UHGV virus genome: UHGV-1366919
Reading direction: 5' to 3' (one strand)
Source: a virus
Length of the DNA stretch: 64,000 nt
The translations under genes were made by a program, and so were the position numbers. Below are positions 3,377 through 63,394 of the stretch, piece by piece; position 1 is the stretch's first letter, and every line of letters starts with the position of its first letter. A model generated the notes under the pieces. It worked only from the letters and a program-made list of their open reading frames with translations. It had not been told where the DNA came from and searched no databases.

Positions 3377-3662
3377 TGTATGTTTTTCTTTCTATTTTAG
3401 TTTGTTTTGTTTTTTAAGTTAACCACTTAATGTGATTTACAGTTTTATAATAAGATTTAACTTATTGTTCAAAGGTGTTCAAGATTTCTTCTTGATATTT
3501 CTAGGATCACAAAATAGCATCGGAATAAAGAACACTATATCAAGGCAAATTGCAAGAGGAGTATAAATCAATATTCCGAAGGATATAATCATTAGAGCAA
3601 GTTTGTCTCTAAATCTTGGAGCATCTCTCATATACTTGAAGCAAGTATAGATTAGCTCAAAC

Positions 3663-4136
3663 TCAAATCTCAGAAACGGTAGTACCATCAGATGGACTGA
3701 ATACAAAAGCCCGTACATATTGAGCCAATGGAAGCCTCTGTCTCCATTCGGCTTTGAGCTGAGTAACTCTATTCCGATAATTCCGTTCAGATTTTGGACA
3801 AGAATTTATAATATCTTCGGAAATAATTTTACAATGCTCGATATAAACCATATTTTCCTGATAAGAAAACTCCCGCTTAGGCTGAAGGCCGTTCAAAGTT
3901 TTAATAAAAGAATCCCGCATTTCAGATAAAGCTTGAATCTCTTCTTCATCTACGAGTTCCTGAAGCAAAGTTCGTTCAAGAGTATTTTTAATAATTTCAA
4001 GGCTTTCCCGAACTAACTCCAAATATCCATCATATCCGATCTTTTCGAATACAATATTTTTTAGGCTTCGGTCGGAAGCAGAGAAATATTCTTTCAGAAA
4101 ATATCTTTGCATATATTTGTTTATCTGTAGTTTCAA
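3663..4136 (-). CDS. hypothetical protein (157 aa)
   Basis: ORF. Confidence 0.45.
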   Translation of the reverse strand: MKLQINKYMQRYFLKEYFSASDRSLKNIVFEKIGYDGYLELVRESLEIIKNTLERTLLQELVDEEEIQALSEMRDSFIKTLNGLQPKREFSYQENMVYIEHCKIISEDIINSCPKSERNYRNRVTQLKAEWRQRLPLAQYVRAFVFSPSDGTTVSEI

Positions 4137-4179
4137 TCCACATACTTTGAGCTAATCAAAGTATGAAAAAGTTTAATGT

Positions 4180-4647
4180 TTACCTATAAAATGCCGCCGT
4201 TACAGTCAACCCGTTGTTGAAGACAACCTTACCGCAAATAATATAACCGTCCTCCTCTTCTTCATCAAATTTGGTAAAGCTCTTAATATAGCCATTAGCT
4301 TTGATAAAATCAAGAAAATCTTTCTCTCCAAGGAACTTATAATTGTTCGGAGAAAATATAGTTATTTCACCGGTAGACTTATTTTCAATCGAGATAAGAT
4401 TTGCCCGACTGCAATAATAAAGGAATATGTTAGCATTCCTGTCAAAATTAACAATCTGTGCACCCTTCAAAGTAGTAAACCTAAAGTTAGAATGGCCGAG
4501 TTGTCCTTCATACATTCTAGCGAAGCTGTTAATATTTTCTTCAGTAAAAGGATTTTCTTGAATAACTTTAGAATGGAATACCCATTTACCTGCCTTGGTC
4601 CGTCTTTCTACAATAATAGTCCGGAATTTCTGGTTTGTCTCTAGCAT
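4180..4647 (-). CDS. hypothetical protein (155 aa)
   Basis: ORF. Confidence 0.5.
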   Translation of the reverse strand: MLETNQKFRTIIVERRTKAGKWVFHSKVIQENPFTEENINSFARMYEGQLGHSNFRFTTLKGAQIVNFDRNANIFLYYCSRANLISIENKSTGEITIFSPNNYKFLGEKDFLDFIKANGYIKSFTKFDEEEEDGYIICGKVVFNNGLTVTAAFYR

Positions 4648-4656
4648 ATTTTGATT

Positions 4657-4860
4657 TTAGTGTATATTGTTAAGATTTTTATAAACTGCTTTAGTATATT
4701 CGTCCTTTTTAGAAACCCAACGTTTAGGCATGCTGATACGTTCTTTCTTAGAGAGGAATGACCAATGAGTTGCTTTACCGCCTTTTGTCTTTCCCTCTTT
4801 ACTCCAAATGCCTGAAGTTTTCATACTTCTAGGAGTTGGCTCAATACTGTCATTCAACAT
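4657..4860 (-). CDS. small basic protein
   Basis: ORF with a CACCTTTGAG motif 25 nt upstream. Confidence 0.4.
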   Translation of the reverse strand: MLNDSIEPTPRSMKTSGIWSKEGKTKGGKATHWSFLSKKERISMPKRWVSKKDEYTKAVYKNLNNIH

Positions 4861-4888
4861 AATTTTATGTTATTTGCGTTCTATTTTC

Positions 4889-4981
4889 TCAAAGGTGTTT
4901 TAACAATTGGAAATAAGTAAAAATTATTCCAATTATGAGTGCGATTATAAAAGCAATTATATTTGCTTGCCATTGTTTCAT
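4889..4981 (-). CDS. small hydrophobic membrane peptide (30 aa, MKQWQANIIAFIIALIIGIIFTYFQLLKHL)
   Basis: Hand-translated sub-60-aa ORF. First of 4 tandem small TM-peptide genes with abutting or overlapping start and stop codons. Confidence 0.4.
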   Translation of the reverse strand: MKQWQANIIAFIIALIIGIIFTYFQLLKHL

Positions 4982-5089
4982 TTAACCAAAGAATACTTGA
5001 TAAAGTTGATAAATGCTTGCAATAAAAAGTATAACAATTGCTACGCCCAAAGCTTGCATAAAACCTTCAAATGATTCAGGATCAGCCAT
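4982..5089 (-). CDS. small hydrophobic membrane peptide (35 aa, MADPESFEGFMQALGVAIVILFIASIYQLYQVFFG)
   Basis: Hand-translated. Its stop abuts the next ATG. Confidence 0.4.
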   Translation of the reverse strand: MADPESFEGFMQALGVAIVILFIASIYQLYQVFFG

Positions 5090-5162
5090 GATATTTGATA
5101 TAGTTGATTGTTAAAAGAATGATAAAACCAATTCCAAAACCAGTAAGCCAGGATTTTATCAT
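5082..5162 (-). CDS. small hydrophobic membrane peptide (26 aa, MIKSWLTGFGIGFIILLTINYIKYHG)
   Basis: Hand-translated. Overlaps neighbours by a few nt (ATGGCTGA-type overlap). Confidence 0.35.
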   Translation of the reverse strand: MIKSWLTGFGIGFIILLTINYIKYHG

Positions 5163-5163
5163 A

Positions 5164-5289: not shown

Positions 5290-5586
5290 TTAATAATATC
5301 CTATCCAGTTGTTAAGTGTTGCCAGTTCTTCTAATTTTGTTTCTGCTTCTTGAAGAGTCTTAAAAATAAAATCTTCTTTATTCAATCCTTGTTGAATATC
5401 CCAAATATATCCTCGTTTGATAAATTTGGAATGAAAATCTTCTCCTCCGATAATTACTCGGATAGAATAATCTTCTTTTTCAAAATGGACCACTTGAAGA
5501 TAAATCCTGAAACCGTCGCCGTCCCCAATATGATATGTCTTTGACGGCTCCAGGACAAATTCCGTAATACTACTTTCGTTTTCCAC
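5290..5586 (-). CDS. hypothetical protein (98 aa)
   Basis: ORF. Confidence 0.45.
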   Translation of the reverse strand: MENESSITEFVLEPSKTYHIGDGDGFRIYLQVVHFEKEDYSIRVIIGGEDFHSKFIKRGYIWDIQQGLNKEDFIFKTLQEAETKLEELATLNNWIGYY

Positions 5587-5962
5587 GCTGACCTTTCTTA
5601 TATTCCCAATTCTTCATCTTAAGAAGATAATAAACCCTCCCAACTGCAATTCCAGAAAGAACGGACATTTGCTTAACTGTACGATCCGGAGAATAAAACT
5701 TTCGAAGTTGCTCAATCTCAGGTTCCCAATCTCGAGTTTGCCGCCCTGAAGTAGCCCGGCCGCCAATTTTACCAACATAAACAATATCGCAAAGATATTT
5801 GCCAAGTTTGAAAAGATTGTTAACAGGCTTAATATTGTCCTCAATATTCAAATCCGAAAAATAATCTTCCTTTGCTTTATTGAGAACATCTTCAATTGTT
5901 CCAAATTTTACATTAACAATCTGAAAGTTTAATGTTTCAGTGTTGATAATTTTTATTTGCAT
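5570..5962 (-). CDS. hypothetical protein with C-terminal helix-turn-helix-like segment
   Basis: ORF. C-terminal TVKQMSVLSGIAVGRVYYLLK resembles an HTH. Upstream it carries CACCTTCAAATAATAAGG followed by TATAAT. Confidence 0.45.
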   Translation of the reverse strand: MQIKIINTETLNFQIVNVKFGTIEDVLNKAKEDYFSDLNIEDNIKPVNNLFKLGKYLCDIVYVGKIGGRATSGRQTRDWEPEIEQLRKFYSPDRTVKQMSVLSGIAVGRVYYLLKMKNWEYKKGQRGKRK

Positions 5963-5995
5963 GATACTTTTATTATATTTCTTACCTTATTATTT

Positions 5996-6002
5996 GAAGG
6001 TG
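5996..6002 (-). promoter_or_regulatory. conserved upstream element (gene-sense aaCACCTTCAAATAATAAGG ... TATAAT) 34 nt before the ATG of 5570..5962
   Basis: One of about 17 instances of the plus-strand [AG]AAGGTG motif located 25-60 nt upstream of minus-strand gene starts. Confidence 0.4.
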
Positions 6003-6009
6003 TTAGAAC

Positions 6010-6285
6010 TTAAACCAAATAAAAGAAATGTTTCTTTTTGAAATTATACAAAATATACCTTTTTTGATCTTCATCATATTCAACTTCAGACTCTTCTTCT
6101 CGATAAAACATCTTAATATCATTGGACAAGCGAGTAACTAAGATGCCATATTCCGGCCGTTCTTTAATTTCAATCGAAACTTCAACGGGCTTAAGAAAAT
6201 CAAAATTAAGAGGAATACCACAATATTTTACTTTTTTCCCTTTTAGCTTTTTAGCAAACTTTCTAAAGTCTATTCTATTTTTCAT
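6010..6285 (-). CDS. hypothetical protein
   Basis: ORF. Confidence 0.4.
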   Translation of the reverse strand: MKNRIDFRKFAKKLKGKKVKYCGIPLNFDFLKPVEVSIEIKERPEYGILVTRLSNDIKMFYREEESEVEYDEDQKRYILYNFKKKHFFYLV

Positions 6286-6367
6286 TTAATTTATTTTTAA
6301 GATTGTTTTATTCTTTTATAATATAATAATCTTATTATAAAAATAATTCCTTAAAACGATTTTTAGA

Positions 6368-6406
6368 ATAAAAAAGGCATTCGAATTCAATTCGAATGCC
6401 TTTTAC
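6368..6406. terminator. bidirectional Rho-independent terminator (ggcattcgaatt/aattcgaatgcc stem flanked by A6 and T4)
   Basis: Perfect palindrome at 6376-6400, directly after the stop of 6425..6850. Confidence 0.55.
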
Positions 6407-6424
6407 AATATTAGGTAAAATACT

Positions 6425-6850
6425 TTATTCCAAATAATCGGAAAGTGCTTTAACAAACTCTTTACCGATTTGAGTTATCGGTTCATTATAAAACATTTTA
6501 CGATCGGCCCTAACAATAATTTGCTTCTTTTTGGGCAAAATAGCTCCAGGCTCTTCTTGCCCGGCATAATCTTCAAGATATTGTCCGATACTCAAATTAG
6601 CAAGAAGAATATCATCGATAAGTTCAAAAACATATTGAAAATCATCTTTACCAATTACATCACTAACTTCCCAATCTTCATCGTCATTGTATAAAAGAAT
6701 AAAGAGTTTATCACGATGTTCAGGACTTTCGTAAACAGCCATATAAACCGGCATATCCTCATCAAGCGGTGCATCTACCCAGTTTTCAGGATTACGAGGG
6801 TCGGAAGCATCCGATTGTTCTCGCACCCTATCAATACTCCAATTTTCCAT
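6425..6850 (-). CDS. hypothetical acidic protein (141 aa)
   Basis: ORF. Confidence 0.45.
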   Translation of the reverse strand: MENWSIDRVREQSDASDPRNPENWVDAPLDEDMPVYMAVYESPEHRDKLFILLYNDDEDWEVSDVIGKDDFQYVFELIDDILLANLSIGQYLEDYAGQEEPGAILPKKKQIIVRADRKMFYNEPITQIGKEFVKALSDYLE

Positions 6851-6888
6851 AATATTATTTTATAATAAAACTTAATTTATATCGGTGC

Positions 6889-8289
6889 TTAAACCCAGTT
6901 TCTTCGAACTATTTCACGAATTTCAGAAAAAGTTTGTTCTCGAATCAGTTTGCCATTCTCAAAAACTAGATCTAAAATATCTCTTTCAGAAGTTTCTTGA
7001 ATAGTTTGATATTTATTTATTTCGTTAAGAATCAAAGACAAACGCCCCTTCTTAGAAGCTTTTGACATATCCAATGGACGTTTTTGAACATCATGCCATT
7101 TATCGTCATACTTCTGAGCGGAACATTTAAAAGCAAACCGGCAAGTATCTCGGTTAATTTTTTGAAGAAGTCCTCCACCCATGCCAAAAGCCCAGTTTTC
7201 CGATGACCAGCCGTTTTTTGCAGATTCTTCAAGAATACGATCCATATCGCTAATATTGATACCATCACCCCAAAGAGCCCGAACTTGATCCGGAAGAACT
7301 TTGAATCCTTTATTGTTTACAGTATATCCGAAATATTGGCCGAGAAGTTCCAGTACCTGTTGAGATACTTTAATAATATCACCAGAATCAGGTCTGAATA
7401 CAATTCGTCCATTTCGATTGAGAATCAAATCCTTAAATTTTGTTCCGCAAACTTCAATGAATCGTTCATAATTGTATGAATCGATTACCATTGCCATAAT
7501 TCCGTCAGGATTCTTATTCAGCAGTTCTTCAACTACGCCAAACTCTCCTTCTTCTCCTCGAGAAGTCATGATGGAATGTTCAGTAGCCCTGATGCTATAT
7601 CCGAACATTTTATCAATATTCTCATTATAGTATCGGGAAGGAACAAGCAAAGCTGGAACGGTATCAGTCCCATTAAAATTCAGCAAATGGGCAGAGCCGC
7701 CCAGCATAGAAGCTTCAAAATTTTCAGTTCCCCGGCATCCAAAATCGTGAAGTTGAAAATTGAGAATATTATTAAAATCTTCTCCTTCTTTATCTGAGGT
7801 AGTTGTCAGCCAATTAGTTAACATTAACTTCCCATAATAAGAAGTTGTGGCGACTGTAATCGGGTACCATATATGAGTAAGAATAGTTTCGGCAAAATTA
7901 GTTAAGAAAGGAACTTTATCGTCAGTATTTTCAATAGTCATTAGAACATTGGAAATATCAATTAGGGAACCTTCTTTAACGGCCTTAATCCTAAGAGGAA
8001 GATGACCATTATATTTTTTAAGAATATATTCCCAACCTTCTTTATTAAAGATGCCAGGACCAATATGCCGAGTAATAAGATAATCAGCTTCATTAATCAG
8101 TTCCTGAGTAATAACAGGTCCTACAAAATATTTCTTAAGGATTGCCTGAAGGCCATAAAAAACAGTCTTAGGAAACTTAGAACCTTTACGGGCTTCGAAA
8201 TAAGAATATACTCCTTGAGTATTGTTAGGTAACATCTTGTCATGAGTATATTTGTAAGAATCAGCAGAAAATAAAATATTATCGGTCAT
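6889..8289 (-). CDS. nadV: nicotinamide phosphoribosyltransferase (NAMPT/NadV-type)
   Basis: 466 aa. Residue patterns (YKYTHDK..., GTDTV, FGMGG) are typical of the NAMPT family. It sits beside an NMNAT gene, as in phage NAD+ salvage pairs. Confidence 0.8.
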   Translation of the reverse strand: MTDNILFSADSYKYTHDKMLPNNTQGVYSYFEARKGSKFPKTVFYGLQAILKKYFVGPVITQELINEADYLITRHIGPGIFNKEGWEYILKKYNGHLPLRIKAVKEGSLIDISNVLMTIENTDDKVPFLTNFAETILTHIWYPITVATTSYYGKLMLTNWLTTTSDKEGEDFNNILNFQLHDFGCRGTENFEASMLGGSAHLLNFNGTDTVPALLVPSRYYNENIDKMFGYSIRATEHSIMTSRGEEGEFGVVEELLNKNPDGIMAMVIDSYNYERFIEVCGTKFKDLILNRNGRIVFRPDSGDIIKVSQQVLELLGQYFGYTVNNKGFKVLPDQVRALWGDGINISDMDRILEESAKNGWSSENWAFGMGGGLLQKINRDTCRFAFKCSAQKYDDKWHDVQKRPLDMSKASKKGRLSLILNEINKYQTIQETSERDILDLVFENGKLIREQTFSEIREIVRRNWV

Positions 8290-19014: not shown

Positions 19015-19134
19015 TTACTTACCTTTCTGAACCTTAATTACAGGAGGCTGATTAACAGTTTGTTGCTGTTGCTGAGAGCAAGAAGCTGTCAAACAAATTA
19101 CAGAAGCGGTAAGAAGAATTGCAATGTTTTTCAT
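19015..19134 (-). CDS. small lipoprotein (39 aa: MKNIAILLTASVICLTASCSQQQQQTVNQPPVIKVQKGK)
   Basis: Hand-translated. Signal peptide with lipobox-like LTASC. AGGTG/CACCT motif about 35 nt upstream. Confidence 0.45.
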   Translation of the reverse strand: MKNIAILLTASVICLTASCSQQQQQTVNQPPVIKVQKGK

Positions 19135-19177
19135 GATTTTATAATATTTTTTATCTTATTTTTTGTAGGTGCTCAAA

Positions 19178-20578: not shown

Positions 20579-20996
20579 TATATTTTAGATAATAAGAATA
20601 ATAAAAAGATTTTTGGAATAAACAACCGCCTATTGCAGTTGAATGAGATACAAGCTCATAACCTTTTTTAATTAGAAAAGAAATAACTTCATTTAATATT
20701 TCCTCAAATATTTCTTTATCATGCTCTCTTTCATTTCGAAGAGTAAAGAATAAAAATTTAGGCCGTATAACATATTCCGGTAAAGAATAATCCTCAATAA
20801 TAAAATAACCGGTTTTAGGCAATTCTTTAGTATAGCGATCTATTTTCAGATCAATTTGATCAAGAATATATTCGAGACAATTAGACTTTTTAATTCTATA
20901 TTTCTCAATATCAAGAGCTACTTTAAATCGTTTCTTTTCTTCTTTAAGCCTTTGTTTAAGAAAAGTTTTATATTCATTTTTGTTAAACCAGCTCAT
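20571..20996 (-). CDS. hypothetical protein (141 aa), operon partner of the AAA+ ATPase
   Basis: 8-nt overlap with the downstream gene and 14-nt overlap with the upstream gene. Confidence 0.45.
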   Translation of the reverse strand: MSWFNKNEYKTFLKQRLKEEKKRFKVALDIEKYRIKKSNCLEYILDQIDLKIDRYTKELPKTGYFIIEDYSLPEYVIRPKFLFFTLRNEREHDKEIFEEILNEVISFLIKKGYELVSHSTAIGGCLFQKSFYYSYYLKYNV

Positions 20997-21300
20997 TGAT
21001 TGATGCTTCTTTATAAAAGTTAGAAAGGATAAGAGTTATAATGAAAGGTTCTCCTTTACTCAATTCAATGTCATATTCAATGCCATTATTATCTTCTTCC
21101 CAAATAATATGAAGCTCATCGTTAAACACAACTGTTTCAATATTTTTAATGAGCAGCATATTTTTTACCTTTTGAGTAAGGTCAAACATTGATCCGTCAA
21201 ATTCAATGATTTTTCCTCCCATAAGGGAATCTTTAATAATATCTTCATCCCCGTGAGATACATGAAGATAAGATGGAATTGAAACTGCAAAATTACTCAT
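20983..21300 (-). CDS. hypothetical protein (105 aa), first gene of the AAA+ operon
   Basis: ORF. AACACCTTTGAG...CATAAT element upstream. Confidence 0.45.
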   Translation of the reverse strand: MSNFAVSIPSYLHVSHGDEDIIKDSLMGGKIIEFDGSMFDLTQKVKNMLLIKNIETVVFNDELHIIWEEDNNGIEYDIELSKGEPFIITLILSNFYKEASINELV

Positions 21301-21330
21301 AAAAATATTATGAGATAAATCTTATAACTC

Positions 21331-21337
21331 AAAGGTG
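21331..21337 (-). promoter_or_regulatory. conserved element AACACCTTTGAG ... CATAAT 32 nt before the AAA+ operon
   Basis: Matches the 4891-4897 instance (AACACCTTTGAG). Confidence 0.4.
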
Positions 21338-21350
21338 TTTAAGAAATAAA

Positions 21351-27074: not shown

Positions 27075-27333
27075 AATTTTAATTTCTAATTGTTAAATGT
27101 TATACTTTTATATTATTAAAACTCTTAATTTTTAGAGGTGTTCTTTACTTTTTCTAAATAAGCCTCAATTTTCAAAACTTCTTTATATGAAAATGATTTA
27201 TCTTTACACTTAGGGCAAATATGTGTTAATACATCTGGAACAATAATAACTTGACCTTTTTTGTCGGTGAAAACAAAATCTTCAATAACTTTTTGATAAT
27301 ATGGTTGCTAAATTCAATGAAATCTAATGAAAT

Positions 27334-30403: not shown

Positions 30404-30505
30404 ATTTTTTATTTTCTTCTTCTAGCTGTCTTTTGATAACTGGATCGCCTAGCCAGTATATAAAATATTCTTTATCATCCTGAGATTGAATCCAAAGATA
30501 CTCAA

Positions 30506-33103: not shown

Positions 33104-33454
33104 TTAACTTATTCTGAACCAGGCTTTATAACCAGGATAATTCTGAAGGCGCTTAGAAATAGTTGTAGTATCGCATTCAAAAATATTTGCAACTTCAGCT
33201 TGAGAAAAACCCATGTAATTCAAAGTTGCTGCAACTTCAACCATACGAGGTGTAACAACTACTTTACTTTTACGTCCTCCGTCAAGTAGTTTATTTGTTC
33301 GATTATTAACAGAACTAATTTCTACTTTAGTTTTACCTTTAAGCATATTAGCCTGATTTTTATTAAATCGAAATATATTTGTAACTACTTCAACAGGAAG
33401 TATTTCAGAAAGATTCTTAGCAGCTTGGATGTCTTCTTTATAAATTCTAGCCAT
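33104..33454 (-). CDS. putative HTH DNA-binding protein (116 aa)
   Basis: C-terminal GFSQAEVANIFECDTTTISKRL is HTH-like. Confidence 0.4.
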   Translation of the reverse strand: MARIYKEDIQAAKNLSEILPVEVVTNIFRFNKNQANMLKGKTKVEISSVNNRTNKLLDGGRKSKVVVTPRMVEVAATLNYMGFSQAEVANIFECDTTTISKRLQNYPGYKAWFRIS

Positions 33455-33518
33455 TTTATAAATTAATTTATATTCAATTTAATTGAAATTAATATCTTAA
33501 GATTAAAAGGTGCTTAAA

Positions 33519-35386: not shown

Positions 35387-35544
35387 CGATATTGGTATTA
35401 TCTTAATAATACCTTTACTCTCAACTCCTGAAGGTGTTTAGACATATAATTTAAATTAATTTTTATAAATTATTTTTATAAACTTAGAGGATAATAAGGA
35501 TAAAAATTAAAGAGTTCATAAAAATAATTTTAGAAGATTTATAA

Positions 35545-38385: not shown

Positions 38386-38643
38386 CTATTTATCTGAATT
38401 CAAAATAAGCACAATATTACCATGTGAATCAATCAAATAAATCTTTTTAATATCATTGTTATAGATTTGATTTTTAAACTCAATAAGAGGAATTAAACCA
38501 AAAACATTTTCCAAAATATTAAAGCATTCGGCATCTGACATTGTACCCAGACATTCCCAACTATAAGTTTCACTACACCGGCGGTGAAGGAAATTTCTAA
38601 TTTGATTGATATGTTTTTTTGAAGTAAAATAACGATAATCCAT
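38386..38643 (-). CDS. hypothetical protein (85 aa)
   Basis: ORF. Confidence 0.4.
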   Translation of the reverse strand: MDYRYFTSKKHINQIRNFLHRRCSETYSWECLGTMSDAECFNILENVFGLIPLIEFKNQIYNNDIKKIYLIDSHGNIVLILNSDK

Positions 38644-38665
38644 ATTTATATTATAAAAATAGCCT

Positions 38666-39784
38666 TTATATTTGTAAGTGCTTAGAAATTAAATCTTTAA
38701 TTTGTTGATTGTTCTTTTTCCAATCATTTTCCCAAACTTCAATTAATTTGATACCATTTTCTTTACAAGCTTTTCGTTTATTCTTGTGATAACCTGGTTC
38801 TTTCTCTTCGTGAAATTGATGCCAATATTCACCATTATATTCAAAAGCTAATTTAAGTTCGGGAAGATAAATGTCCAATTCTTTTCCGCCAATAAATTTT
38901 CGAGTATTTTCTAAAATCTTGCCAGAATAAAGAGATTTAATATATTGGCAAAGCTCTTTTTCACCCTTAGAACGTTGTATCGCAATGGCACAATTAGGGC
39001 AACCTCTTCCGCTTAAATGAGCATAAGGAGCTTGTTTAAAAATATAATTACATTTATTACATTTAATTATAATTTTCTTATGAGAATGATTATAAGCAGA
39101 TAACGAATAATCATACCTATCTTTATCATGTACTTTTTCAGCTTTTTTAATAAAAGCTTGTAAAGTAGATATACGATTTAAATTTCGACATTTAATGCAT
39201 CCAACACCTTTAAGATGCTGTTTAGGTGTTTGTTTAAAAATATGGCCGCACTTATTACATTTAATAGTAACTTTTATAAGATAACCCTTATAAAGGGTTG
39301 AAGAATAATCAAATCGATTTTTTCCATGAATTTCTTCTGCCTTTTTAATAAATTCATCTATTGATAAATGCTGACGTTCCTTTCCACATTCTGGACAACC
39401 TGCACCGTTTAAATGATTTCCAGCTTTTTGCTCAAATATACTATCATGATAAAGACATTTGATTTTAACATTAGTATCATTATTAATATAGTTGACAAAA
39501 GAATAATCATAAATTCCTTTGCCATGAACAGATTCAGCTTTTTGTATAAATTCTTGAAGAGTTAATCTCGATTTTTCTGCATTTTTTGTTACTGCACATT
39601 TTGGACAGCCATGTCCATACCAATGCATATATGCAGCTTGTTCAAAGGTATGACCACATTTATTACATTTTATTATAAGCTTGGCTTTAGAACCCTGGTA
39701 AACTGATAGAGAATAGTCATACCTATCAGGACCATGCTTTTTTATGGCTTTTTCAATAAACTTTTCAGTTGTAAACTTTACCAT
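38666..39784 (-). mobile_element. homing-endonuclease-like gene: tandem zinc-ribbon repeats + C-terminal Vsr/DUF559-like PD-(D/E)XK nuclease (paralog 1 of 3)
   Basis: Five repeats of HG.xYDYS..Y.......I.C..HG.F.Q.P..HL.G.GCP.C. C-terminus GEKELCQYIKSLY...ELDIYLPELKLAFEYNGEYWH. Confidence 0.55.
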
Positions 39785-43371: not shown

Positions 43372-43395
43372 GCTTAAATTACAATAACAAAATTA

Positions 43396-44301
43396 CTATA
43401 ATTTTTCTCTAATTTTCTGGAGGTGTTCAGATATTTCTTTTTTAATGGTTTCTGCATTAGTTTTCCATTGGCTGTCCCAAACTTCAATTAAAGTGATTCC
43501 GGCATCTTTACAAAGTTGCCTTTTATTTTCATGATAGCCAGGTTCTTTTTCTTCATGTATTTTATGCCAGTATTCGCCATTATATTCAAGGGCAAGTTTT
43601 AATTCAGGAAGATAAATATCCAATTCTTTTCGACCAATAAATTTTCTTGTATTTTCGAGAATTTCTCCAGGATAAATTGATTTGATAAAATCGCATAACT
43701 CCTTTTCACCCTTAGATTTCTTTTCATGAAGGGCACATTTTAAACATCCCCGCCCAGTTAAGTGATTATACGCCATTTGAGCAAATTTACCATGGACAGG
43801 ACAAATAATAATCACATTTGTTTCTGCATTAATATAAATTGTTTTCGAATAATCGAATTTATGTCCATGCACTTTTTGAGCACGGTTAATAAATTCTTTT
43901 GTGGTTAAACGCTCCAATCCTACGCAACTTTTGCATCCATGCCCCCTTAAATGATTGATGGGATATTGCTGAAAAGGTCCATGAACAGGGCAAATAATAG
44001 GTACTTTTGCATGATTATTTTTATAGTTTACTTTAGAATAATCATATTTGTTCCCATGAACCTCTCTTGCTTTCTTTATAAACTTCTCAGTCGTTAAAGA
44101 TTTTGCATCAACTGCACATTTAAAACATCCCTGACCTCGTAAATGGGCTCCGGCTCTTTGTTGGAAAGGTCCATGAACCGGGCAAATAACAGTTATAGAA
44201 CTATAAGCATTTTTATAATTTACTTCAGAATAATCAAAAAAGTCTCCATGTATTTTTCTAGCCCTGTCAATAAAAATTTCAGTGGTTATTCTGTTGGGCA
44301 T
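43396..44301 (-). mobile_element. homing-endonuclease-like gene, paralog 2 (zinc-ribbon repeats + Vsr-like nuclease)
   Basis: Repeats CPVHGPFQQ..HLRGHGC..C x4. C-terminus GEKELCDFIKSIYPGEILENTRKFIGRKELDIYLPELKLALEYNGEYWH. Confidence 0.55.
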
Positions 44302-47069: not shown

Positions 47070-47228
47070 GATTTTTAATCATTATAGCACGAATTAATAA
47101 ATTTCTGCCCGCAATTTGAATCTAAATCTTCGAAAGATATGGAATTACCGCAAGGAAGATGCTTATATTGAACAGGAAAATATCCTTTCTGGCAGCAGCA
47201 AGAAGACAGAAGAAATATTACTAATAAT

Positions 47229-50508: not shown

Positions 50509-50778
50509 TTAAATTTTAATTTTTTGATTTTCGTCCAAATATTTGTATTCGTTAAGTATTACAAATTGATTTTTAATACTTTCTTTATCCCAATTAACTC
50601 CAATTTCTTTGAATTTATTAACGCTTAATTTAATTTCAGTCTGCCCGTTTCTTATTAACCAAAACTTGGCTTTTTCATCAATTGTTATTTCTCCATCAGA
50701 AGGAATTAAAGTATGGTAATAATTTTCAAGAAATGCTTTTTGATTGCGCGTCCAAAGCCATTTAGGATAATCAAGCAT
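50509..50778 (-). CDS. hypothetical protein (89 aa)
   Basis: ORF with the AAAGGTG motif upstream. Confidence 0.4.
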   Translation of the reverse strand: MLDYPKWLWTRNQKAFLENYYHTLIPSDGEITIDEKAKFWLIRNGQTEIKLSVNKFKEIGVNWDKESIKNQFVILNEYKYLDENQKIKI

Positions 50779-50816
50779 ATTAAAATAATAAACTTTTACT
50801 ATTCTTTTAAAGGTGA

Positions 50817-51281
50817 TTAATTTCCTGCGTATTCAACTAAAAGAACAGAAATATCATGCTTTGTTCGAAAATTATACAAAAGATTTTCAAATTCTTTTGG
50901 TTTTACTCGTCCTATACCGCATCCCAAAAAAGGCATTACAACAGTATTAAGATGATGAGTGTTCATAACTTCAAACAAATCGCAAAGAGACAAAGAAATA
51001 TCTCCCAAATTTGCTATTGAACCAGGATAAAACATGGTTGGAACATTGGCAATCATTTTCCAATTATCTTCATCGGACAAATAAAAATAATGGCCTTTAC
51101 CAATATTAACCATTTTAGAATTACAAGAGTTCTGATAACTCCAGTACATTTCAGGAAATTTATCGGCAAAAGCTTTTGCAACTCCTGCTCCCATTACTCC
51201 GATACAATTGACGGCATTGCAAATTACATCCGCCTTTGTATCAAAGATATTTCCTTTTGTTTTAATAACTTTAAGAGACAT
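50817..51281 (-). CDS. macro domain (ADP-ribose binding/processing) protein
   Basis: GNIFDTKADVICNAVNCIGVMGAGVAKAF is the canonical macro-domain N-terminal signature. Confidence 0.7.
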   Translation of the reverse strand: MSLKVIKTKGNIFDTKADVICNAVNCIGVMGAGVAKAFADKFPEMYWSYQNSCNSKMVNIGKGHYFYLSDEDNWKMIANVPTMFYPGSIANLGDISLSLCDLFEVMNTHHLNTVVMPFLGCGIGRVKPKEFENLLYNFRTKHDISVLLVEYAGN

Positions 51282-51586
51282 TATAACTCTGGTTCATATT
51301 CAATATTACGAAGAATGAATTCTTCCAACCATTCTTGTGAAAGAACTCCAGTGTAGGATTCAAGCTTGTCATAGTTCTCATCACAAGCAACAAAAGTAGG
51401 AACAGATCGAATTTCGAACTTTTTAACATAAGGCATTGCCGAATTATCCTGATCGACAACAAAACTCATGAATTCGATTTCAGGATCTTTTTTATATTTT
51501 TCAACTACACGTTCCCAGGCTGGTTTCATCATACGGCATGGACCACATGTAGAAGAAGAAAAAAGTAAAAATTTAGTCATTATCAA
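51281..51586 (-). CDS. thioredoxin (T4 NrdC-like redoxin)
   Basis: SSSTCGPCRMMKP contains the CGPC active site; about 100 aa. Confidence 0.75.
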   Translation of the reverse strand: MIMTKFLLFSSSTCGPCRMMKPAWERVVEKYKKDPEIEFMSFVVDQDNSAMPYVKKFEIRSVPTFVACDENYDKLESYTGVLSQEWLEEFILRNIEYEPEL

Positions 51587-51797
51587 AAATAATAATAGTT
51601 AGTAGAGCGATAATTCCCCCGAAAATAATTCCAAGAATAGTAGCAGCAATAGAAATCCAAGTTGGAGAAAATAACTGAATCCAATTCCAATTAGTAAAAG
51701 GCTCATAACCAAACCAATACCAAAATAGAATCATCATCTGAAGAAATCCTCCAACAGATAAACCATTATTAATAGCTTTATTTGTTATATTCTTCAT
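51573..51797 (-). CDS. small two-TM membrane protein
   Basis: ORF; hydrophobic. Confidence 0.4.
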   Translation of the reverse strand: MKNITNKAINNGLSVGGFLQMMILFWYWFGYEPFTNWNWIQLFSPTWISIAATILGIIFGGIIALLTIIIFDND

Positions 51798-51819
51798 TAA
51801 AAATATAATATGAAAATTC

Positions 51820-52155
51820 TTAGTTATCGAAAGTGCTCAACTCTGAAGTTTGAAGTTCTGCATTCCAAATTGGTTTCCAACTATATTTGTCATCATAAGG
51901 AGTCATAGGAATAATCCTGGGAGCTTCTTTATTATTAATAACTTTTTCTTTATTAATAATATCTTGAGCCTCTTTATAACATTTCTCCATAATAGATGAA
52001 ATATTATCAGACTTAATAGTTGCTATCGGCTTCTTTTCCTCTTCAATAATAATATTAATAATCTTCCTAAGTTTAAAATCTGACAACTTGGAAAGATCAA
52101 TTTGTTTTACCATTTTGATAAGGATTTCTCTTTGAGTTTCAGTTTCCGAGCTCAT
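51820..52155 (-). CDS. hypothetical protein
   Basis: ORF. Confidence 0.4.
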   Translation of the reverse strand: MSSETETQREILIKMVKQIDLSKLSDFKLRKIINIIIEEEKKPIATIKSDNISSIMEKCYKEAQDIINKEKVINNKEAPRIIPMTPYDDKYSWKPIWNAELQTSELSTFDN

Positions 52156-53285: not shown

Positions 53286-54428
53286 TTATTTTCTAATTGC
53301 TTTAAACTTCCCAAACCTAGGTACATTAAGATCAGGAGTTAAATCCTGATAAATGATAGTTGCCATCTTGCCTTCATAAAGTGCTCGATTTTTGAAAAAT
53401 TCACGTTTAGCAGGTTCATCCCAGCCTTTACCCATACCTACTGAAAATTGAACTCCATTTTCATCTTCACAAATTATTTGTGCTGCTTGTCCGGCATGAT
53501 TACCCCGTCCATCAAGAATTTGAACAATCTTATATTCGCTATCTTGAAATCGCTTATACTTTACAAGATTAGAAGAACGTCCTTCATCATAAGTCATCTC
53601 GGGATTACGAAGCATAATTCCTTCAAATCCATTTTCGATTGCATCATCTAAATAAGCTTCTACCTCTTCAAAAGAATTAACTTCAAATTGAGTAACACCC
53701 AAACTATACTTTAATGTAATATTATTAATCTGAAGGGGATAAAGATGATGACAACATTGATTAAGCTTGGTATGCTTATTACGGTCCTTATAAGGAATCT
53801 TTGTATTTCGTTCCGCAAAATCAAAAGCATGAAATTTAATAATGCTTTTTGTTTTTGCCAGGAATTCTTCAGTAATATTCTTAGTTCTAGAAATCAAAGA
53901 TGCAACTTGATTAAAATCATCTCTAAGTTCATGAGAATATAATTCTCCATCAATAATTGCATTAGGATTAGCAATGAAATAAGGTTTCAACTCCTCAAAT
54001 ACATGAGGGCATGAAAGAATCTCATGATGAGTCCTTGAAAACATTCCTTTAGCACAAATATAACATCTAAAGCCATCTAATTTGGCAGAAGCAAATTGAG
54101 GAAATTTAATAAATTTCTTTCTTGCTTTAAATTCTTTGGCAAGAGTTACTTCAAATTGTTTTTCAGTTGGAATAGTATCTTGAAACCCCCTTTTCCTTTG
54201 CTTTTCAATTCGAGATTGTACTTCTAAAGCACATTGCTGTTCAGGAGTAGTAGCATTAGAACGACCTTCATTCTTACCTTCACAATAAGTCGGTTCAGTC
54301 GTAGTAATAGCTCCCCCTACTCGACCAGAAGACATAGTATACCAATTACTGGAATCGTCATAAGATATACTCCATGTAATAGGATTGCCTTTCTTATCGA
54401 GATTAAACAATTCGAAAGATTTAATCAT
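53286..54428 (-). CDS. ATP-dependent polynucleotide ligase (KxDGxR nucleotidyltransferase; DNA ligase-like)
   Basis: Motif I SAKLDGFRCY. The 380-aa protein has an extra N-terminal region of about 100 aa. Confidence 0.55.
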   Translation of the reverse strand: MIKSFELFNLDKKGNPITWSISYDDSSNWYTMSSGRVGGAITTTEPTYCEGKNEGRSNATTPEQQCALEVQSRIEKQRKRGFQDTIPTEKQFEVTLAKEFKARKKFIKFPQFASAKLDGFRCYICAKGMFSRTHHEILSCPHVFEELKPYFIANPNAIIDGELYSHELRDDFNQVASLISRTKNITEEFLAKTKSIIKFHAFDFAERNTKIPYKDRNKHTKLNQCCHHLYPLQINNITLKYSLGVTQFEVNSFEEVEAYLDDAIENGFEGIMLRNPEMTYDEGRSSNLVKYKRFQDSEYKIVQILDGRGNHAGQAAQIICEDENGVQFSVGMGKGWDEPAKREFFKNRALYEGKMATIIYQDLTPDLNVPRFGKFKAIRK

Positions 54429-54466
54429 TATTTTTTAATAAATTATTTCTTAAAAATCGATGGTGT

Positions 54467-54790
54467 TTAAACTATCTCCTTAAAGTCAAAAGTCTCATCA
54501 TCCTCATTGATAAATGAAACAAGATGGTAAGTTTCATCAGAAAATCCGTCTGAAACTTTTACTTTAATTTCCCACCCTTCCCCGAACAATCCTCCATAAG
54601 TACCCCAGAAAATTTGAGAAGCACAAAATTTAGCAGCATCCGCCATATTTTGGATATTGTTAGCTTTAATATCATATTTGTTAACAATCAAATAACCATG
54701 TTTCTTAACTTTTCCGTCATCCCAAAGTTCTTTAGCAATGCAAACATAATTTGCATCCTTAAGAAGTGACATATTAATCTTTTTACTCAT
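54467..54790 (-). CDS. hypothetical protein (107 aa), overlaps the upstream NTase gene by 8 nt
   Basis: ORF. Confidence 0.4.
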   Translation of the reverse strand: MSKKINMSLLKDANYVCIAKELWDDGKVKKHGYLIVNKYDIKANNIQNMADAAKFCASQIFWGTYGGLFGEGWEIKVKVSDGFSDETYHLVSFINEDDETFDFKEIV

Positions 54791-55829
54791 AAAAATTTAA
54801 AATATAATTCTTAAAAAATTCCTTATCAGGTTTTTCAGGTAATTTTGACTTATTAAACAATTCTTTTAATTCTAAAGATTTTTCATTTGCCAACTTCATT
54901 AGATAATCATATTCAAAATCGCCATTTCTAATCTTTAAAAGAAATTGTCTTAAAATAGGATTACATTTAACCGTTAATGTTCCATCTTTTAAAATCTCTC
55001 TGCAAAGACTCATAAGACGGAAAAGATGCATCATATTCTTTGTATCATAAAAGGTTTTATCAGACGTCTTTTCTACATTTGTTGCATATCTTTTTTCATT
55101 CCTTTTAGCAACCCAATCCCAGTATTCTTTATATTCTTTACAATATTTCTGATAAGCCGGAATATTAATAATCACATAGGCTGCGGTATTTGCATTTTTT
55201 GGAACCGATGTAATATTAATGTTCATGTCTAAAATAGGTCCGGCTTTACAAGGATGATTATAAAGTACATAAACATTTTCAGCATGATTCATTTTACAAA
55301 GAGATAAATTAGTCTCTTTAATACCACAGCATTCCAACCAGTCTCGATAAGGAATAGAATGTTGATAGCACAACACCCAGCTAAAATCTTTTAACGTTTT
55401 TCTTTCTTTAGGAAAAGGATTAGCTGACTTTTTATTAACGTTTTTGGCCTTTAAAATTTGAGATTCAGCATAAGCTCCAAAAGTATAAAAACATTTCTTG
55501 GAAAGAACTTTTTCAATTAGGGGATCAAATCGTTTATCCCTAATTTTAACATGTTCAGGATCAGTAGTAAACAAAACTTCAAGAGCCGAAGGAGTATTCT
55601 TTCTTAGTTGTTCAAGGAAGAATCCAATCTCGGTATAGATAGTATCATTATTATTCTCCTGGATTACCTTTTCATATTCACCAACTAATATATCTTTAAC
55701 AGGATGAGCAAAAACACCTCTAATATCAACATCCGAATCTTTAGTATTCAACCCATAAGAAATACTTCCCGCAATAACGCTCAATAATACTTCTTTACCC
55801 TTCAGAGGTCCTTCTCCACTTAAACACAT
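54783..55829 (-). CDS. Pol-beta superfamily nucleotidyltransferase (minimal NTase motif GS-x9-DxD); possibly RNA-repair-associated (RlaP-like)
   Basis: AGSISYGLNTKDSDVDIRGV matches the G[SG]...D.D nucleotidyltransferase fold signature. Confidence 0.5.
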   Translation of the reverse strand: MCLSGEGPLKGKEVLLSVIAGSISYGLNTKDSDVDIRGVFAHPVKDILVGEYEKVIQENNNDTIYTEIGFFLEQLRKNTPSALEVLFTTDPEHVKIRDKRFDPLIEKVLSKKCFYTFGAYAESQILKAKNVNKKSANPFPKERKTLKDFSWVLCYQHSIPYRDWLECCGIKETNLSLCKMNHAENVYVLYNHPCKAGPILDMNINITSVPKNANTAAYVIINIPAYQKYCKEYKEYWDWVAKRNEKRYATNVEKTSDKTFYDTKNMMHLFRLMSLCREILKDGTLTVKCNPILRQFLLKIRNGDFEYDYLMKLANEKSLELKELFNKSKLPEKPDKEFFKNYILNFYE

Positions 55830-55858
55830 GAATTCATTTTATAAATTTCCTTAAAACT

Positions 55859-55865
55859 TGAAGGT
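55859..55865 (-). promoter_or_regulatory. conserved element CACCTTCAAG ... TATAAA 28 nt before the NTase gene 54783..55829
   Basis: Plus-strand GAAGGTG instance. Confidence 0.35.
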
Positions 55866-55947
55866 GTTTAATGGTAAAAATAAAAGAGAGAAATGCTTGA
55901 AAAATAAAGCATTTCTCTCAAGTTATATAGCTTTTTCTAAGCTTCTT

Positions 55948-61091: not shown

Positions 61092-61358
61092 TTATTCGTC
61101 CTCGTTTTCTTCTTCGTCGTCTCGTTCTTCTAATTCTTCAAGCAGCTCATTAAGTCGAGATAATGAACACTCGGGAATATATTCTTCTTCATCAGGTTCC
61201 ACAATAGCAGTTGTAATATTAGCTACAATACCTTGAACCATATCAGCTAAAGAATCATCTACATCTGTATCTTCAATATCGGCAATTAATTTATTACAAA
61301 TTACTTCAACCTGAGTTTGATAATTTTTAAATCGTCGTTTAAATTGTTTAAGAGTCAT
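61092..61358 (-). CDS. hypothetical protein with poly-acidic C-terminus
   Basis: ORF. Confidence 0.4.
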   Translation of the reverse strand: MTLKQFKRRFKNYQTQVEVICNKLIADIEDTDVDDSLADMVQGIVANITTAIVEPDEEEYIPECSLSRLNELLEELEERDDEEENEDE

Positions 61359-61443
61359 GTGTGTTACTTATGGTTTCTAATTTTATTAGAAATTATTTTA
61401 CTGAACAAAATTCAAAAATTTCTTTTATTTTTTGAATGATAAT

Positions 61444-62163
61444 TCATTGAGGGGTATTTATATTTTTCTTATAATGATTAAGCATCAGAATAATCTCATG
61501 CTTCATAAAATTTGTTGGAATAACTTCCCAATTTCCGGTATTCATATCTAACCAGAAAATGAGCAGTCCTTTGCATTTCTTCTTAGTCAGAATTTCATTC
61601 ATAAATCCATAAATTCCTAACTGAAGAGCATATATATTAAATTCACATTCAGATAAATGATTTAATGGAGCTTTCATCCATTTACCATAATCTGAACCAA
61701 ATCTAAATTTTTTATTTGTTTTAAAATCGCCAATGATAAATGTACCATCTTCTAACTCAAATAGAAGATCACTAGTACCGGCGATTTTAAAATCATGATT
61801 ATATAACAACTTTTCAGAATATATTTCTGAAATATTTGGAATATATTTTTCTACTTTTAATTGAAATTTTTCAATGATCTTCTTATATAAAGGATCAACT
61901 TCTCCATACTTTACATAATTTTCAAGAGCAGCATGAAAATCAGTACCTCTATCACATGCAAAATTTTTATTATCTTCCCATTCTTTAAGAATTTCTTCTT
62001 GACTTACTCCTCTTTTCTTTGCAACCCATTTAGAAATATTTTCTGCATCAAACTTTTCCTTATATCGCCCCAATAATTTAGAAACTGAGCAATATTCTTC
62101 ATTTGTTTCAATATTAATATATTGATGAGTATCTTCTAAAAATTTAATCGGACTATTATCCAT
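61444..62163 (-). CDS. PD-(D/E)XK family nuclease (RecB/Cas4/YqaJ-like exonuclease fold)
   Basis: GTSDLLFELEDGTFIIGDFKTNKK gives a D...(D/E)xK core; upstream CDRGTDFHAALE. Confidence 0.5.
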   Translation of the reverse strand: MDNSPIKFLEDTHQYINIETNEEYCSVSKLLGRYKEKFDAENISKWVAKKRGVSQEEILKEWEDNKNFACDRGTDFHAALENYVKYGEVDPLYKKIIEKFQLKVEKYIPNISEIYSEKLLYNHDFKIAGTSDLLFELEDGTFIIGDFKTNKKFRFGSDYGKWMKAPLNHLSECEFNIYALQLGIYGFMNEILTKKKCKGLLIFWLDMNTGNWEVIPTNFMKHEIILMLNHYKKNINTPQ

Positions 62164-62221
62164 TTTTAAATTTAAAATAAATTTTTCCTAAACTTAAAAA
62201 AGTGTTTTAATTAATTTTAAA

Positions 62222-62671
62222 ATGATATTAAAATTAACAGAAAAAAATAGCTTTGTAATTTCTATAAATGATAAACGTTATAAATTATTTAAAAAGATTT
62301 TTAATTATTATCAATTACCTTTACCTAAACTGTTTAATGGAGTTAAACATAATAATCCTGTTTTAGGATGTTTATTAAGTCATTACAATATTTTAAAATT
62401 AGCAACATTATGGTCTTTACCTTATATATTTGTTTTTGAAGATGATGTATTACCAAATAAAAATATTATTCATTACCTGAATGAAGCCTTAAAAAACGTT
62501 CCAGATAATTTTAATATCTTAAAATTAGAAAATATATATTTTAATAATGAATATGATAATAATATATTATCTGAAAATAATTGGATTAAACATTGTAAAA
62601 ATGCTCCAATAATAGGAAGAGGAACTGGGGCAATTGTTATTAATATAACATCATCTTTTCAATTAATTTAA
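62222..62671 (+). CDS. glycosyltransferase family 25 (LOS/LPS beta-glycosyltransferase-like), N-terminal part
   Basis: GCLLSHYNILK...IFVFEDDV matches the GT25 signature. Probably split from 62684..62899 by a frameshift. Confidence 0.5.
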   Translation: MILKLTEKNSFVISINDKRYKLFKKIFNYYQLPLPKLFNGVKHNNPVLGCLLSHYNILKLATLWSLPYIFVFEDDVLPNKNIIHYLNEALKNVPDNFNILKLENIYFNNEYDNNILSENNWIKHCKNAPIIGRGTGAIVINITSSFQLI

Positions 62672-62683
62672 TTAATTGAAAAG

Positions 62684-62899
62684 ATGATCCCAAATATTAC
62701 ACCAATTGATGTAATACTAGAATTAGCAAATAAAATATTTCATAATTTTAATATGTATATTTCAAAAAATATTTTATTTGTACAACATAATCTACATAAA
62801 GAAAAAACTATTCATAATAATTTTATGAATAATTCATTAAAAAGAATTAATCCTAATTTAGGAATAATTTCAGATTTTGAACCAAATATATTTGAATAA
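62684..62899 (+). pseudogene. possible C-terminal fragment of the GT25 gene (frameshifted)
   Basis: A short ORF starts 13 nt after the stop of 62222..62671. Together they are about GT25 size. Confidence 0.3.
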
Positions 62900-62901
62900 T
62901 T

Positions 62902-63246
62902 TTAATCCAAATAAGATTGTTCTCCTCCAAATAATTGTTCTTTAATATCTTCATTTAAATCAAATACTTCAACCTCTAAACTATCATAATCATTAAACCA
63001 TCCTTTATAATAAACATTTGACTGTAGAAATATTTTATCATAAGATATTTTATTAGATTTAATGTTGTTTATATCATTTTGTGTAATAGGAACTGCAATA
63101 ATAATTAAATTATTTTCAGATTTTAATCTACATTTAATGCAAATATATTCATCATGATGTCCAATATTATTTCGATTAAGATCTTCTGATATGAATAAAA
63201 ATGGACCATCATACCACATTAATATATCTATTATATTTAATATCAT
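62902..63246 (-). CDS. hypothetical protein (114 aa)
   Basis: ORF with AAAGGTG 33 nt upstream. Confidence 0.4.
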   Translation of the reverse strand: MILNIIDILMWYDGPFLFISEDLNRNNIGHHDEYICIKCRLKSENNLIIIAVPITQNDINNIKSNKISYDKIFLQSNVYYKGWFNDYDSLEVEVFDLNEDIKEQLFGGEQSYLD

Positions 63247-63394
63247 ATATTAATATTAATTAATGACATAAAATTTAAAGGTGATTAATTATTATATTCA
63301 TTTTAATAATATTAAAATAATTTAACATTCATAAGAATGATATTAACACCTATCTGAATTTTTAAAGGTGTTCCGATTATCTTTAAATATTAAT

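Follow-up and report, generated by a model that had tools for sequence, protein, structure and literature searches.

The DNA examined here is a 64,000-nucleotide stretch (hereafter the window) of the phage genome UHGV-1366919, and the subject is a short element with the core CACCTTY that recurs upstream of its genes. The GC content of the window is ∼32%, and the minus strand holds nearly all genes. These include rIIA, rIIB, a GroEL-type chaperonin, an ATP-dependent DNA ligase, two RNA ligases, and NAMPT, as well as thymidylate synthase, DHFR, dTMP kinase, MazG, thioredoxin, and PspA. Several HNH endonucleases, two IS605 TnpB genes, and ∼8 tRNAs are also present. Genes for a T4-type large terminase, tail tube, sheath, and head closure lie just past the right end, as read from a near-identical IMG/VR contig. 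Given this gene content and the adjoining T4-type structural genes, the window represents the early part of a large T4-like phage genome, devoted to nucleotide metabolism.

Among deposited phage genomes, no close relative was found. Near-identical proteins are encoded on contigs of 185-223 kb, and thus the genome is near jumbo size. The protein cluster to which rIIA belongs has ∼1,800 member sequences. The phage lineage is abundant, uncultivated, and very common in sequencing data.

Element architecture and start codon position

Aligned in gene sense, the sites reveal an element of three parts: aaCACCTTY at -37 to -31, TWAG at -24 to -21 after a spacer of 6 nt, and TAttAT at -12 to -7 after a further 8 nt. 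We number sites from the first C of CACC (position 1). With the -10 box set at -12 to -7, the expected transcription start is position 38. The consensus from -40 to -21 is aaaCACCTTYaAAwwwTWAG. An upstream box near -30 had been described in the original prediction, which overlooked the second conserved box. The upstream box is in fact bipartite and not centered at -30: TWAG lies exactly 6 nt past CACCTTY, about one helical turn away. The second subclass that had been proposed, reading AACACCTTTGAG, dissolves into ordinary spacer variation.

Both the strand bias and the enrichment of the element are pronounced. Sites were selected with a 21-nt position weight matrix (PWM) that excludes the -10 box, using cut-offs of at least 10 or at least 12 bits. 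At the lower cut-off, the window contains 27 gene-sense matches vs. a single antisense match, and at the higher cut-off 25 gene-sense matches remain. For comparison, 1.13 Mb of unrelated phage loci with similar GC content gave 8 + 8 matches on the two strands at 12 bits, and 100 kb of the AT-rich Bacteroides phage SJC03 gave 2 + 3 at 10 bits. These controls correspond to a background of ∼0.2-0.8 matches on each strand in 64 kb. The window has 12 copies of CACCTYY-N6-WWAG, all of them in gene sense, whereas shuffled sequences average 0.5 occurrences with a maximum of 3. An unbiased count of 6-mers in the 60 nt upstream of 82 minus-strand genes places AACACC, CACCTT, AAACAC, and ACACCT as the top four. 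The promoter interpretation is well supported, and the gene-sense strand of the early region, with its nucleotide-metabolism and replication-accessory genes, has ∼26 such promoters.

The strand specificity claimed earlier is confirmed by these counts. RAAGGTG alone is found 14 times on the plus strand and 9 times on the minus strand vs. ∼12 expected on both strands together. Among the 16 positions originally listed, 13 carry an exact plus-strand [AG]AAGGTG (the one given as 55859 begins at 55860). The other three are one-base variants, reading in gene sense CACCTAC (19167), CACCTCT (27134), and CACCTCC (43419). About 10 more degenerate sites can be added to that list, for example at 1167, 2322, 2963, 6887, 38680, 51835, 54465, and 62204.

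The third box occupies positions 26-31, which played no part in site selection. Among 45 sites from the window and its relatives, T26 is present in 34, A27 in 40, A30 in 39, and T31 in 40. An A at -11 and a T at -7 are the signature of the sigma70-family -10 hexamer, and a -10 of this type (TAnnnT) is evident here at about -12 to -7. This agrees with the earlier description of a promoter-like element that combines a TATAAT-like box with a noncanonical upstream box. Moreover, the box stays at positions 26-31 even where the next ATG is 50-124 nt away (sites 3477, 27140, 35436, 43425, and 63370). Because its distance to CACC is constant whatever the position of the ATG, the box is an element of the promoter rather than a signal for translation. 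Across sites the region reads TAttATaa, and most sites have T/A at positions 37/38, which places a pyrimidine-purine step at -1/+1.

The element differs from several known promoter types. No TTGACA-like -35 lies 17 ± 1 bp before the -10 box, where the hexamer is instead CCTTYa, and a scan of the window for TTGAC-N16-19-TATAAT gave no matches. The Bacteroidota-type pattern TTTG-N17-21-TAnnTTTG has three gene-sense matches in the window, none of them at a CACC site. The MotA-box core TGCTT is not present in the consensus from -40 to -21.

The main feature of the element, overlooked in the original prediction, is that the start codon coincides with the predicted transcription start. We considered only ATG as a start codon and only open reading frames (ORFs) of at least 40 amino acids, which left 33 sites with a downstream ORF. 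The offset, counted from the first C to the A of the ATG, is bimodal. It is exactly 37 at 12 of the 33 sites, such that the A of the ATG is at the predicted start, and 37-41 at 18 sites; the others are scattered between 50 and 128. Measured from the end of the -10 box, the ATG is 6 nt away in 12 sites and 5-9 nt away in 18. The earlier claim that the motif lies 25-60 nt upstream of genes is valid for most sites; the exceptions are 3471 (101 nt), 63364 (124 nt), 18186 (81 nt), and 13102, after which no ORF follows.

Because the ATG falls on the predicted transcription start, more than half of the units probably yield leaderless mRNAs, as judged from sequence geometry. This reading fits the translation signals, since a Shine-Dalgarno (SD)-like core within 20 nt of the start is found in only 3 of 82 genes vs. 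∼11 expected by chance. Leaderless transcripts are said to be frequent in phages (PMC5312081), and the gut bacterium Akkermansia muciniphila, a possible host, is reported to combine a TATAAT -10 box with leaderless transcription at ∼10% of its start sites (PMC4782308). The units described here resemble such transcripts in having an ATG start 6-7 nt after the -10 box and no SD. They differ in that the arrangement is systematic (∼16 units in 64 kb) and is tied to one upstream box.

Clade restriction and the host

Four syntenic relatives (L032, L033, L035, and L189) share with the window the gene order GroEL, rIIA, rIIB, glucosaminidase, and DUF5856, and their rIIA proteins are 30-42% identical to that of the window. 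All four carry the element, only in gene sense, and the ATG is again often at offset 37. In alignments, the element precedes rIIA and a gene for a 116-amino-acid protein at orthologous positions, while the flanking sequence has diverged. A CACC-type site precedes the orthologue of the latter gene in all four relatives. Variants of the element also exist: L032 favors CACTTTY, and L189 has TWAA in place of TWAG.

The element is absent from the more distant rIIA-encoding phages L187 and L188, from two other phages that lack SDs and carry the same IS605 element (one has zero sites in 21 kb), and from the ∼17 kb of adjoining structural genes (terminase, tail tube, sheath, and head closure). Nor is it used by the few genes on the plus strand of the window. 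Scans of IMG/VR with the exact pattern CACCTTY-N6-TAAG-N10-TATAAT, and with a version allowing N7-9, returned only single, unclustered matches besides a near-identical contig; the motif was seen there in only two near-identical contigs. Phage SJC03, which had been picked as a comparison for its GroEL similarity, was set aside because it has neither synteny nor the motif.

Mobile elements in the window use other promoters. An extended -10 sequence, TGnTATAAT, located ∼11 nt before the start codon, precedes the GroEL, HNH endonuclease, and TnpB genes. Since the CACC element is missing from structural genes, plus-strand genes, and distant phages, and since mobile elements use other promoters, the element is specific to one gene class and one phage clade. 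We found no prior description in the literature of the motif or of Akkermansia phage promoters.

Two side observations concern these comparison phages. L187 encodes a full-length sigma70-family protein (5814-7355, plus strand; 513 amino acids, regions 1.2-4) ∼2.6 kb upstream of rIIA. In L120 and L192, which share the TnpB family, a different box, TTCACAGAAC(T), recurs ∼30-37 nt upstream of several ATGs and is once followed directly by TATAAT. It looks to be a further promoter box that is specific to a clade of phages lacking SDs.

Clues to the host come from mobile and host-type genes. The IS605 TnpB (445 amino acids; element at 30404-31968, minus strand, with conserved ends) has an 80% identical copy in a contig of an "uncultured Akkermansia" metagenome-assembled genome (L119), with flanks of 47-53% GC. 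The same TnpB family is present in other T4-like phages without SDs (L120 and L192). The next relatives are ∼55% identical and include a Paludibacteraceae (Bacteroidota) protein. A second TnpB gene is located at 27334-28434. On the minus strand, 13157-14479 encodes a 440-amino-acid beta-helix protein that begins with a signal-like segment and has, at its C terminus, a VPEP...RRR motif resembling the PEP-CTERM sorting signal. The PEP-CTERM match is below the Pfam cut-off, and JGI annotates a homologue as PEP-CTERM. The phage thus seems to carry a surface protein of host type. The TATAAT-type -10 box, the Akkermansia TnpB copy, and the PEP-CTERM-like signal hint at a Verrucomicrobiota host, whereas the lack of SDs points to an SD-independent host, such as members of the Bacteroidota.

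Possible readers of the upstream box

The explanation that we favor for the data as a whole, with moderate confidence, is a class-specific sigma70-type promoter with a bipartite upstream box, many of whose units are leaderless. By this mechanism, a bacterial multisubunit RNA polymerase with a sigma70-family factor would open TAttAT at -12 to -7, as suggested by the A-11/T-7 signature. The bipartite box would replace a TTGACA-type -35 and would be read by a determinant specific to the phage clade, which might be an activator, a sigma-appropriation factor, or a phage sigma domain 4. Transcription would start 6-7 nt past the -10 box, which in ∼60% of the units would be the A of the ATG or at most 1-4 nt from it. 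The resulting mRNA would be leaderless and would be translated without an SD, in a host that likewise uses no SDs in its genes. The other units would have leaders of 13-90 nt or would produce noncoding RNA.

The original prediction likened the element to T4 MotA-dependent middle promoters. The logic is similar, and the phage is T4-like (rIIA, rIIB, ligases, and a T4-type terminase). In both systems a sigma70-type -10 is retained, the -35 is replaced by a phage-specific upstream box, and the promoters are spread over early and middle genes; retargeting of the host polymerase, established for AsiA and MotA in the sigma-appropriation paradigm of T4 (reviewed in PMC7403470), is proposed here. In T4, however, the box is tttGCTTtA centered near -30, unlike CACCTTY at -37 to -31 plus TWAG at -24 to -21, and T4 middle transcripts are not leaderless, whereas many here are predicted to be. 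Moreover, no MotA or AsiA homologue was detected in the window. The analogy may therefore describe how the element works, but on box sequence the element does not belong to that class. The T4 early promoters offer another comparison. They are like the present element in their high copy number in the early region, strong TATAAT, and conservation that extends well past the two hexamers, and are unlike it in that no TTGACA- or GTTTAC-like -35 is present here.

Several observations weigh against the favored explanation. A search for MotA, AsiA, gp55, or sigma genes, conducted with PHROGs and/or Pfam among the called ORFs of the window (about one-third of the genome), yielded no homologue. An intrinsic terminator lies within 60 nt upstream at only 3 of 27 sites, by which a general terminator-then-promoter layout was rejected; overall, only three to four sites follow one. 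The start site and the leaderless state are deduced from geometry. In addition, the gene for the 116-amino-acid protein, the candidate reader discussed below, is itself behind a CACC promoter, and a strictly required factor could not switch on its own gene. Finally, CACC is almost the sole promoter type in the 64 kb, including the very start of the leftward block, which fits immediate-early promoters served by unmodified host polymerase.

The last two points lead to an alternative that we consider possible but rather unlikely, in which the unmodified host holoenzyme reads immediate-early promoters and no phage factor is involved. CACCTTY and TWAG would then represent optimized host -35 and spacer preferences, much as T4 early promoters are optimized for Escherichia coli. 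This would explain why the element dominates the early block from the first promoters bordering the late genes, why the -10 box is canonical, and why the gene of the putative factor has a CACC promoter. The density of ∼26 in 64 kb is also like that of T4 early promoters. However, the hexamer at the -35 position, CCTTYa, is unlike TTGACA, and the -10 box is unlike the Bacteroidota TAnnTTTG, with TTTG-N17-21-TAnnTTTG being essentially absent. Furthermore, mobile elements of the same genome carry TGnTATAAT promoters, another SD-less phage with the shared IS element has no site in its 21 kb, and TWAG becomes TWAA in L189. A reader specific to the phage clade is most likely, although direct recognition by a host sigma factor is nearly as likely. 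We lean toward a phage-specified reader because the element is restricted to one clade, because mobile elements in the genome have other promoters, and because TWAG changes to TWAA in L189.

Two further explanations fare less well. A phage-encoded noncanonical RNA polymerase could treat CACCTTY-N6-TWAG as the whole promoter, starting at the A/G of TWAG and producing a fixed AU-rich leader of ∼20 nt. The late promoters of the AR9 nonvirion RNA polymerase, AACA-N6-TA/G (PMC5312081), have the same geometry of a short conserved box, a 6-nt spacer, and T-A/G, and the near-jumbo size suggested by the 185-223 kb contigs is compatible with this idea. Nevertheless, we judge it highly improbable, as it leaves unexplained the A-11/T-7 signature at a fixed distance from the box, an extra sigma70-type -10 that the AR9 promoters do not have. 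No genes for beta/beta'-like RNA polymerase subunits were seen, either in the window or in ∼25 kb of DNA next to it. The terminase and sheath are T4-like rather than phiKZ-like, and T4-like phages use host polymerase. Action at the RNA level, which the original prediction had raised on the grounds that CACCTT is identical to the 3' end of 16S rRNA, is harder still to credit, and we assign it almost no weight. In this case, the element would be an anti-SD mimic, or a hairpin CACCUU..AAGGUG in read-through transcripts would act on translation or processing. CACCT does resemble the 16S end, although CACCTT is only similar and not identical to CACCUCCUU, and a short dyad is formed at a few sites (6002, 18192, 25543, and 63370). 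Against this, the genes have no SD to sequester or mimic, and the element lies upstream of the inferred start. The dyad or hairpin reading (CACCTT..AAGGTG) was rejected because there is no covariation across sites and relatives. The right half of the dyad is mostly only wAAG, or 3-4 nt in most sites. At positions 4/17, pairing is broken by T/G in L032 and by C/A in L189.

If a phage-specified protein reads the bipartite box, the 116-amino-acid protein is a speculative candidate. Its C terminus has a helix-turn-helix (HTH) like that of sigma region 4 or HTH_23. The protein is detected by tblastn at 42%-54% identity in L032, L033, L035, and L189, which are all of the motif-bearing relatives, and its family is tiny (13 cluster representatives among 1.84 billion). 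Among nine family members, HTH_23 weakly matches four (best E = 9e-6) and Sigma70_r4 three (best E = 4e-5). A low-confidence single-sequence AlphaFold model (pLDDT 67) has two three-helix bundles joined by a linker, an arrangement that, if the model is right, would suit a bipartite site. Foldseek gave no significant match to this model (best E = 0.6), only a scatter of HTH and ECF-sigma domains, and PDB sequence searches with this protein and with a 130-amino-acid HTH-like protein (5570-5962) returned nothing significant. A bolder scenario, which seems unlikely to us as a whole, is that a clade of ∼185-225 kb T4-like phages with an SD-independent host has evolved its own sigma-appropriation-type system unrelated to MotA/AsiA. 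In it, the 116-amino-acid protein would read the box, the polymerase would start on the AUG, and the outcome would be a leaderless early/middle regulon.

Three points are new here: the upstream box has two parts, it is coupled to the ATG at exactly 37 nt, which implies leaderless mRNAs, and the element is conserved across an abundant uncultivated phage clade. If confirmed, these findings would supply a promoter map, ready for use, for a lineage whose sequences are encountered very often, and would describe a phage in which one class of promoter is systematically tied to leaderless translation, in a host that lacks SDs. The compact 37-bp cassette of promoter plus start codon could serve for expression in a bacterial group in which engineering is difficult. 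A concrete question is also raised, namely which protein reads CACCTTY/TWAG, and the 116-amino-acid protein is a named, testable candidate.

Individual sites and neighboring features

Promoters, promoter-like sites, and the candidate reader gene in the window (first C, first C of CACC; sequences in gene sense)
Feature	Coordinates	Strand	First C	Sequence	Downstream feature	PWM score
Promoter	63333..63372	-	63370	CACCTTT-N6-TCAG, -10 TAATAT	next ATG 124 nt away	25.5
Promoter	63246..63285	-	63283		offset-37 ATG of 62902-63246 (leaderless class, predicted)	19.9
Degenerate promoter	62163..62206	-	62204	CACTTTT..TTAG	offset-41 ATG of exonuclease gene 61444-62163 (PHROG)	13.0
Promoter	55829..55868	-	55866	-10 TAAAAT	offset-37 ATG of nucleotidyltransferase gene 54783-55829	25.6
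Promoter	54428..54467	-	54465	CACCATC..TAAG	offset-37 ATG of DNA ligase gene 53286-54428	14.2
Degenerate promoter	51797..51837	-	51835	CACTTTC..TAAG	offset-38 ATG of 51573-51797	10.2
Promoter	50778..50817	-	50815		offset-37 ATG of 50509-50778	19.7
TGnTATAAT promoters	~45990-46010, ~47075-47095, 31900-31925	-		TGnTATAAT	GroEL, HNH endonuclease, TnpB genes	
Promoter	43388..43427	-	43425	CACCTCC..TTAG, -10 TATAGT	offset-54 ATG of rIIA (leadered, predicted)	24.1
Degenerate promoter	38643..38682	-	38680	CACTTAC..AAAG, -10 TATAAT	offset-37 ATG of 38386-38643	15.1
Promoter	35399..35438	-	35436	CACCTTC..TGAG, -10 TATTAT	offset-50 ATG of radical-SAM-like gene 34382-35386	22.3
Promoter	33475..33514	-	33512		offset-58 ATG of 116-amino-acid HTH gene	22.5
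Candidate reader, 116-amino-acid protein	33104..33454	-				
Promoter	27103..27142	-	27140	CACCTCT..TAAG, -10 TAATAT	offset-66 ATG of 26829-27074	26.8 (best in window)
Promoter	21300..21339	-	21337		offset-37 ATG of 20983-21300; just downstream of tRNA cluster	23.9
Promoter	19134..19173	-	19171	CACCTAC..TAAG, -10 TATTAT	offset-37 ATG of 38-amino-acid ORF	24.2
Promoter	18155..18194	-	18192	CACCTTT..AAAG, -10 TATAAT	60-amino-acid ORF at offset 81, then tRNA-Glu	24.3
Promoter-like site	15131..15170	-	15168	CACCTTA..TAAG, TATAAATA		16.0
Promoter	13071..13110	-	13108	CACCTTC..TTAG	terminator precedes; no ORF downstream	21.8
Promoter	12630..12669	-	12667		offset-37 ATG of DUF2828/DUF7788 gene 11146-12630; terminator 22 nt upstream	24.7
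Degenerate promoter	6850..6889	-	6887	CACCGAT..TAAG, -10 TATAAA	offset-37 ATG of 6425-6850	12.9
Promoter	5962..6004	-	6002	CACCTTC..TAAG, -10 TATAAT	offset-40 ATG of 5570-5962	24.7
Promoter	4860..4899	-	4897		offset-37 ATG of 4657-4860	22.5
Promoter	3440..3479	-	3477	-10 TATTAT	offset-101 ATG of 3041-3376 (leadered, predicted)	23.4
Degenerate promoter	2926..2965	-	2963	CACCGTC-N6-TAAG, TATAAA	offset-37 ATG of 2324-2926	read directly from sequence
Promoter	2283..2324	-	2322	CACCTCC..TATG, TATAAA	offset-39 ATG of 1993-2283	17.0
Degenerate site	1469..1508	-	1506	TACCATC..TAAG	offset-57 ATG of 1159-1449	15.0
Degenerate promoter	1128..1169	-	1167	TACCTGT..TAAG, TATAAA	offset-39 ATG of 814-1128	12.9

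Individual sites are identified below by the coordinate of their first C. Site 63370 is located in the divergent region bordering the late genes and is part of an inverted repeat, CACCT..AGGTG. Site 55866 has an intrinsic terminator 20 nt upstream and is conserved in a 98% relative, in which the offset-37 ATG is kept and a decoy ATG is lost. A strong terminator hairpin (2983-3013) is found just upstream of site 2963. The translated 38-amino-acid ORF behind site 19171 has an N terminus, MKNIAILLTASVICLTASC, that resembles a lipoprotein signal peptide. Site 15168 aims into a 689-nt gap upstream of the PEP-CTERM gene and is antisense to a plus-strand XRE HTH gene (14607-14840; HTH_3).

The region of ∼390 nt after site 13108 (12685-13071, minus strand) ends at a strong terminator (12689-12721) and has a fold z-score of -4.9 relative to shuffled sequences. 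No ORF was found there in one translated frame or in the site scan, and there was no Rfam match. This promoter may drive a structured noncoding RNA of ∼390 nt.

Other RNA-related features were observed near the tRNAs. Directly 3' of tRNA-Glu (17708-17780), the minus-strand segment 17635-17707 has a subthreshold match to the hepatitis delta virus (HDV)-like ribozyme RF02682 (33 bits vs. a gathering score of 44; E = 0.004). In gut phages, ribozymes of this kind have been described in association with tRNAs. Beside tRNA-Gly, 21586-21686 (minus strand) weakly matches the YrlA/Y-RNA-like family RF02553 (26 bits; E = 0.047). The DUF2828/DUF7788 protein may be Ro60/TROVE-like and, with the YrlA-like match, may form a phage Ro-Y RNA module.

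Two further observations relate to individual genes. On L039, the large terminase (2074-5062, plus strand) comprises three consecutive ORFs of 199, 151, and 645 amino acids, each matching terminase-large-subunit families, and the gene may be split or interrupted. Of the small genes in the clade, the DUF5856 gene (36649-37014 in the window, plus strand) is conserved best, at 59-73% identity. It is on the strand opposite to its neighbors in the window and in all four relatives, and its sequence looks Dps/ferritin-like by eye.

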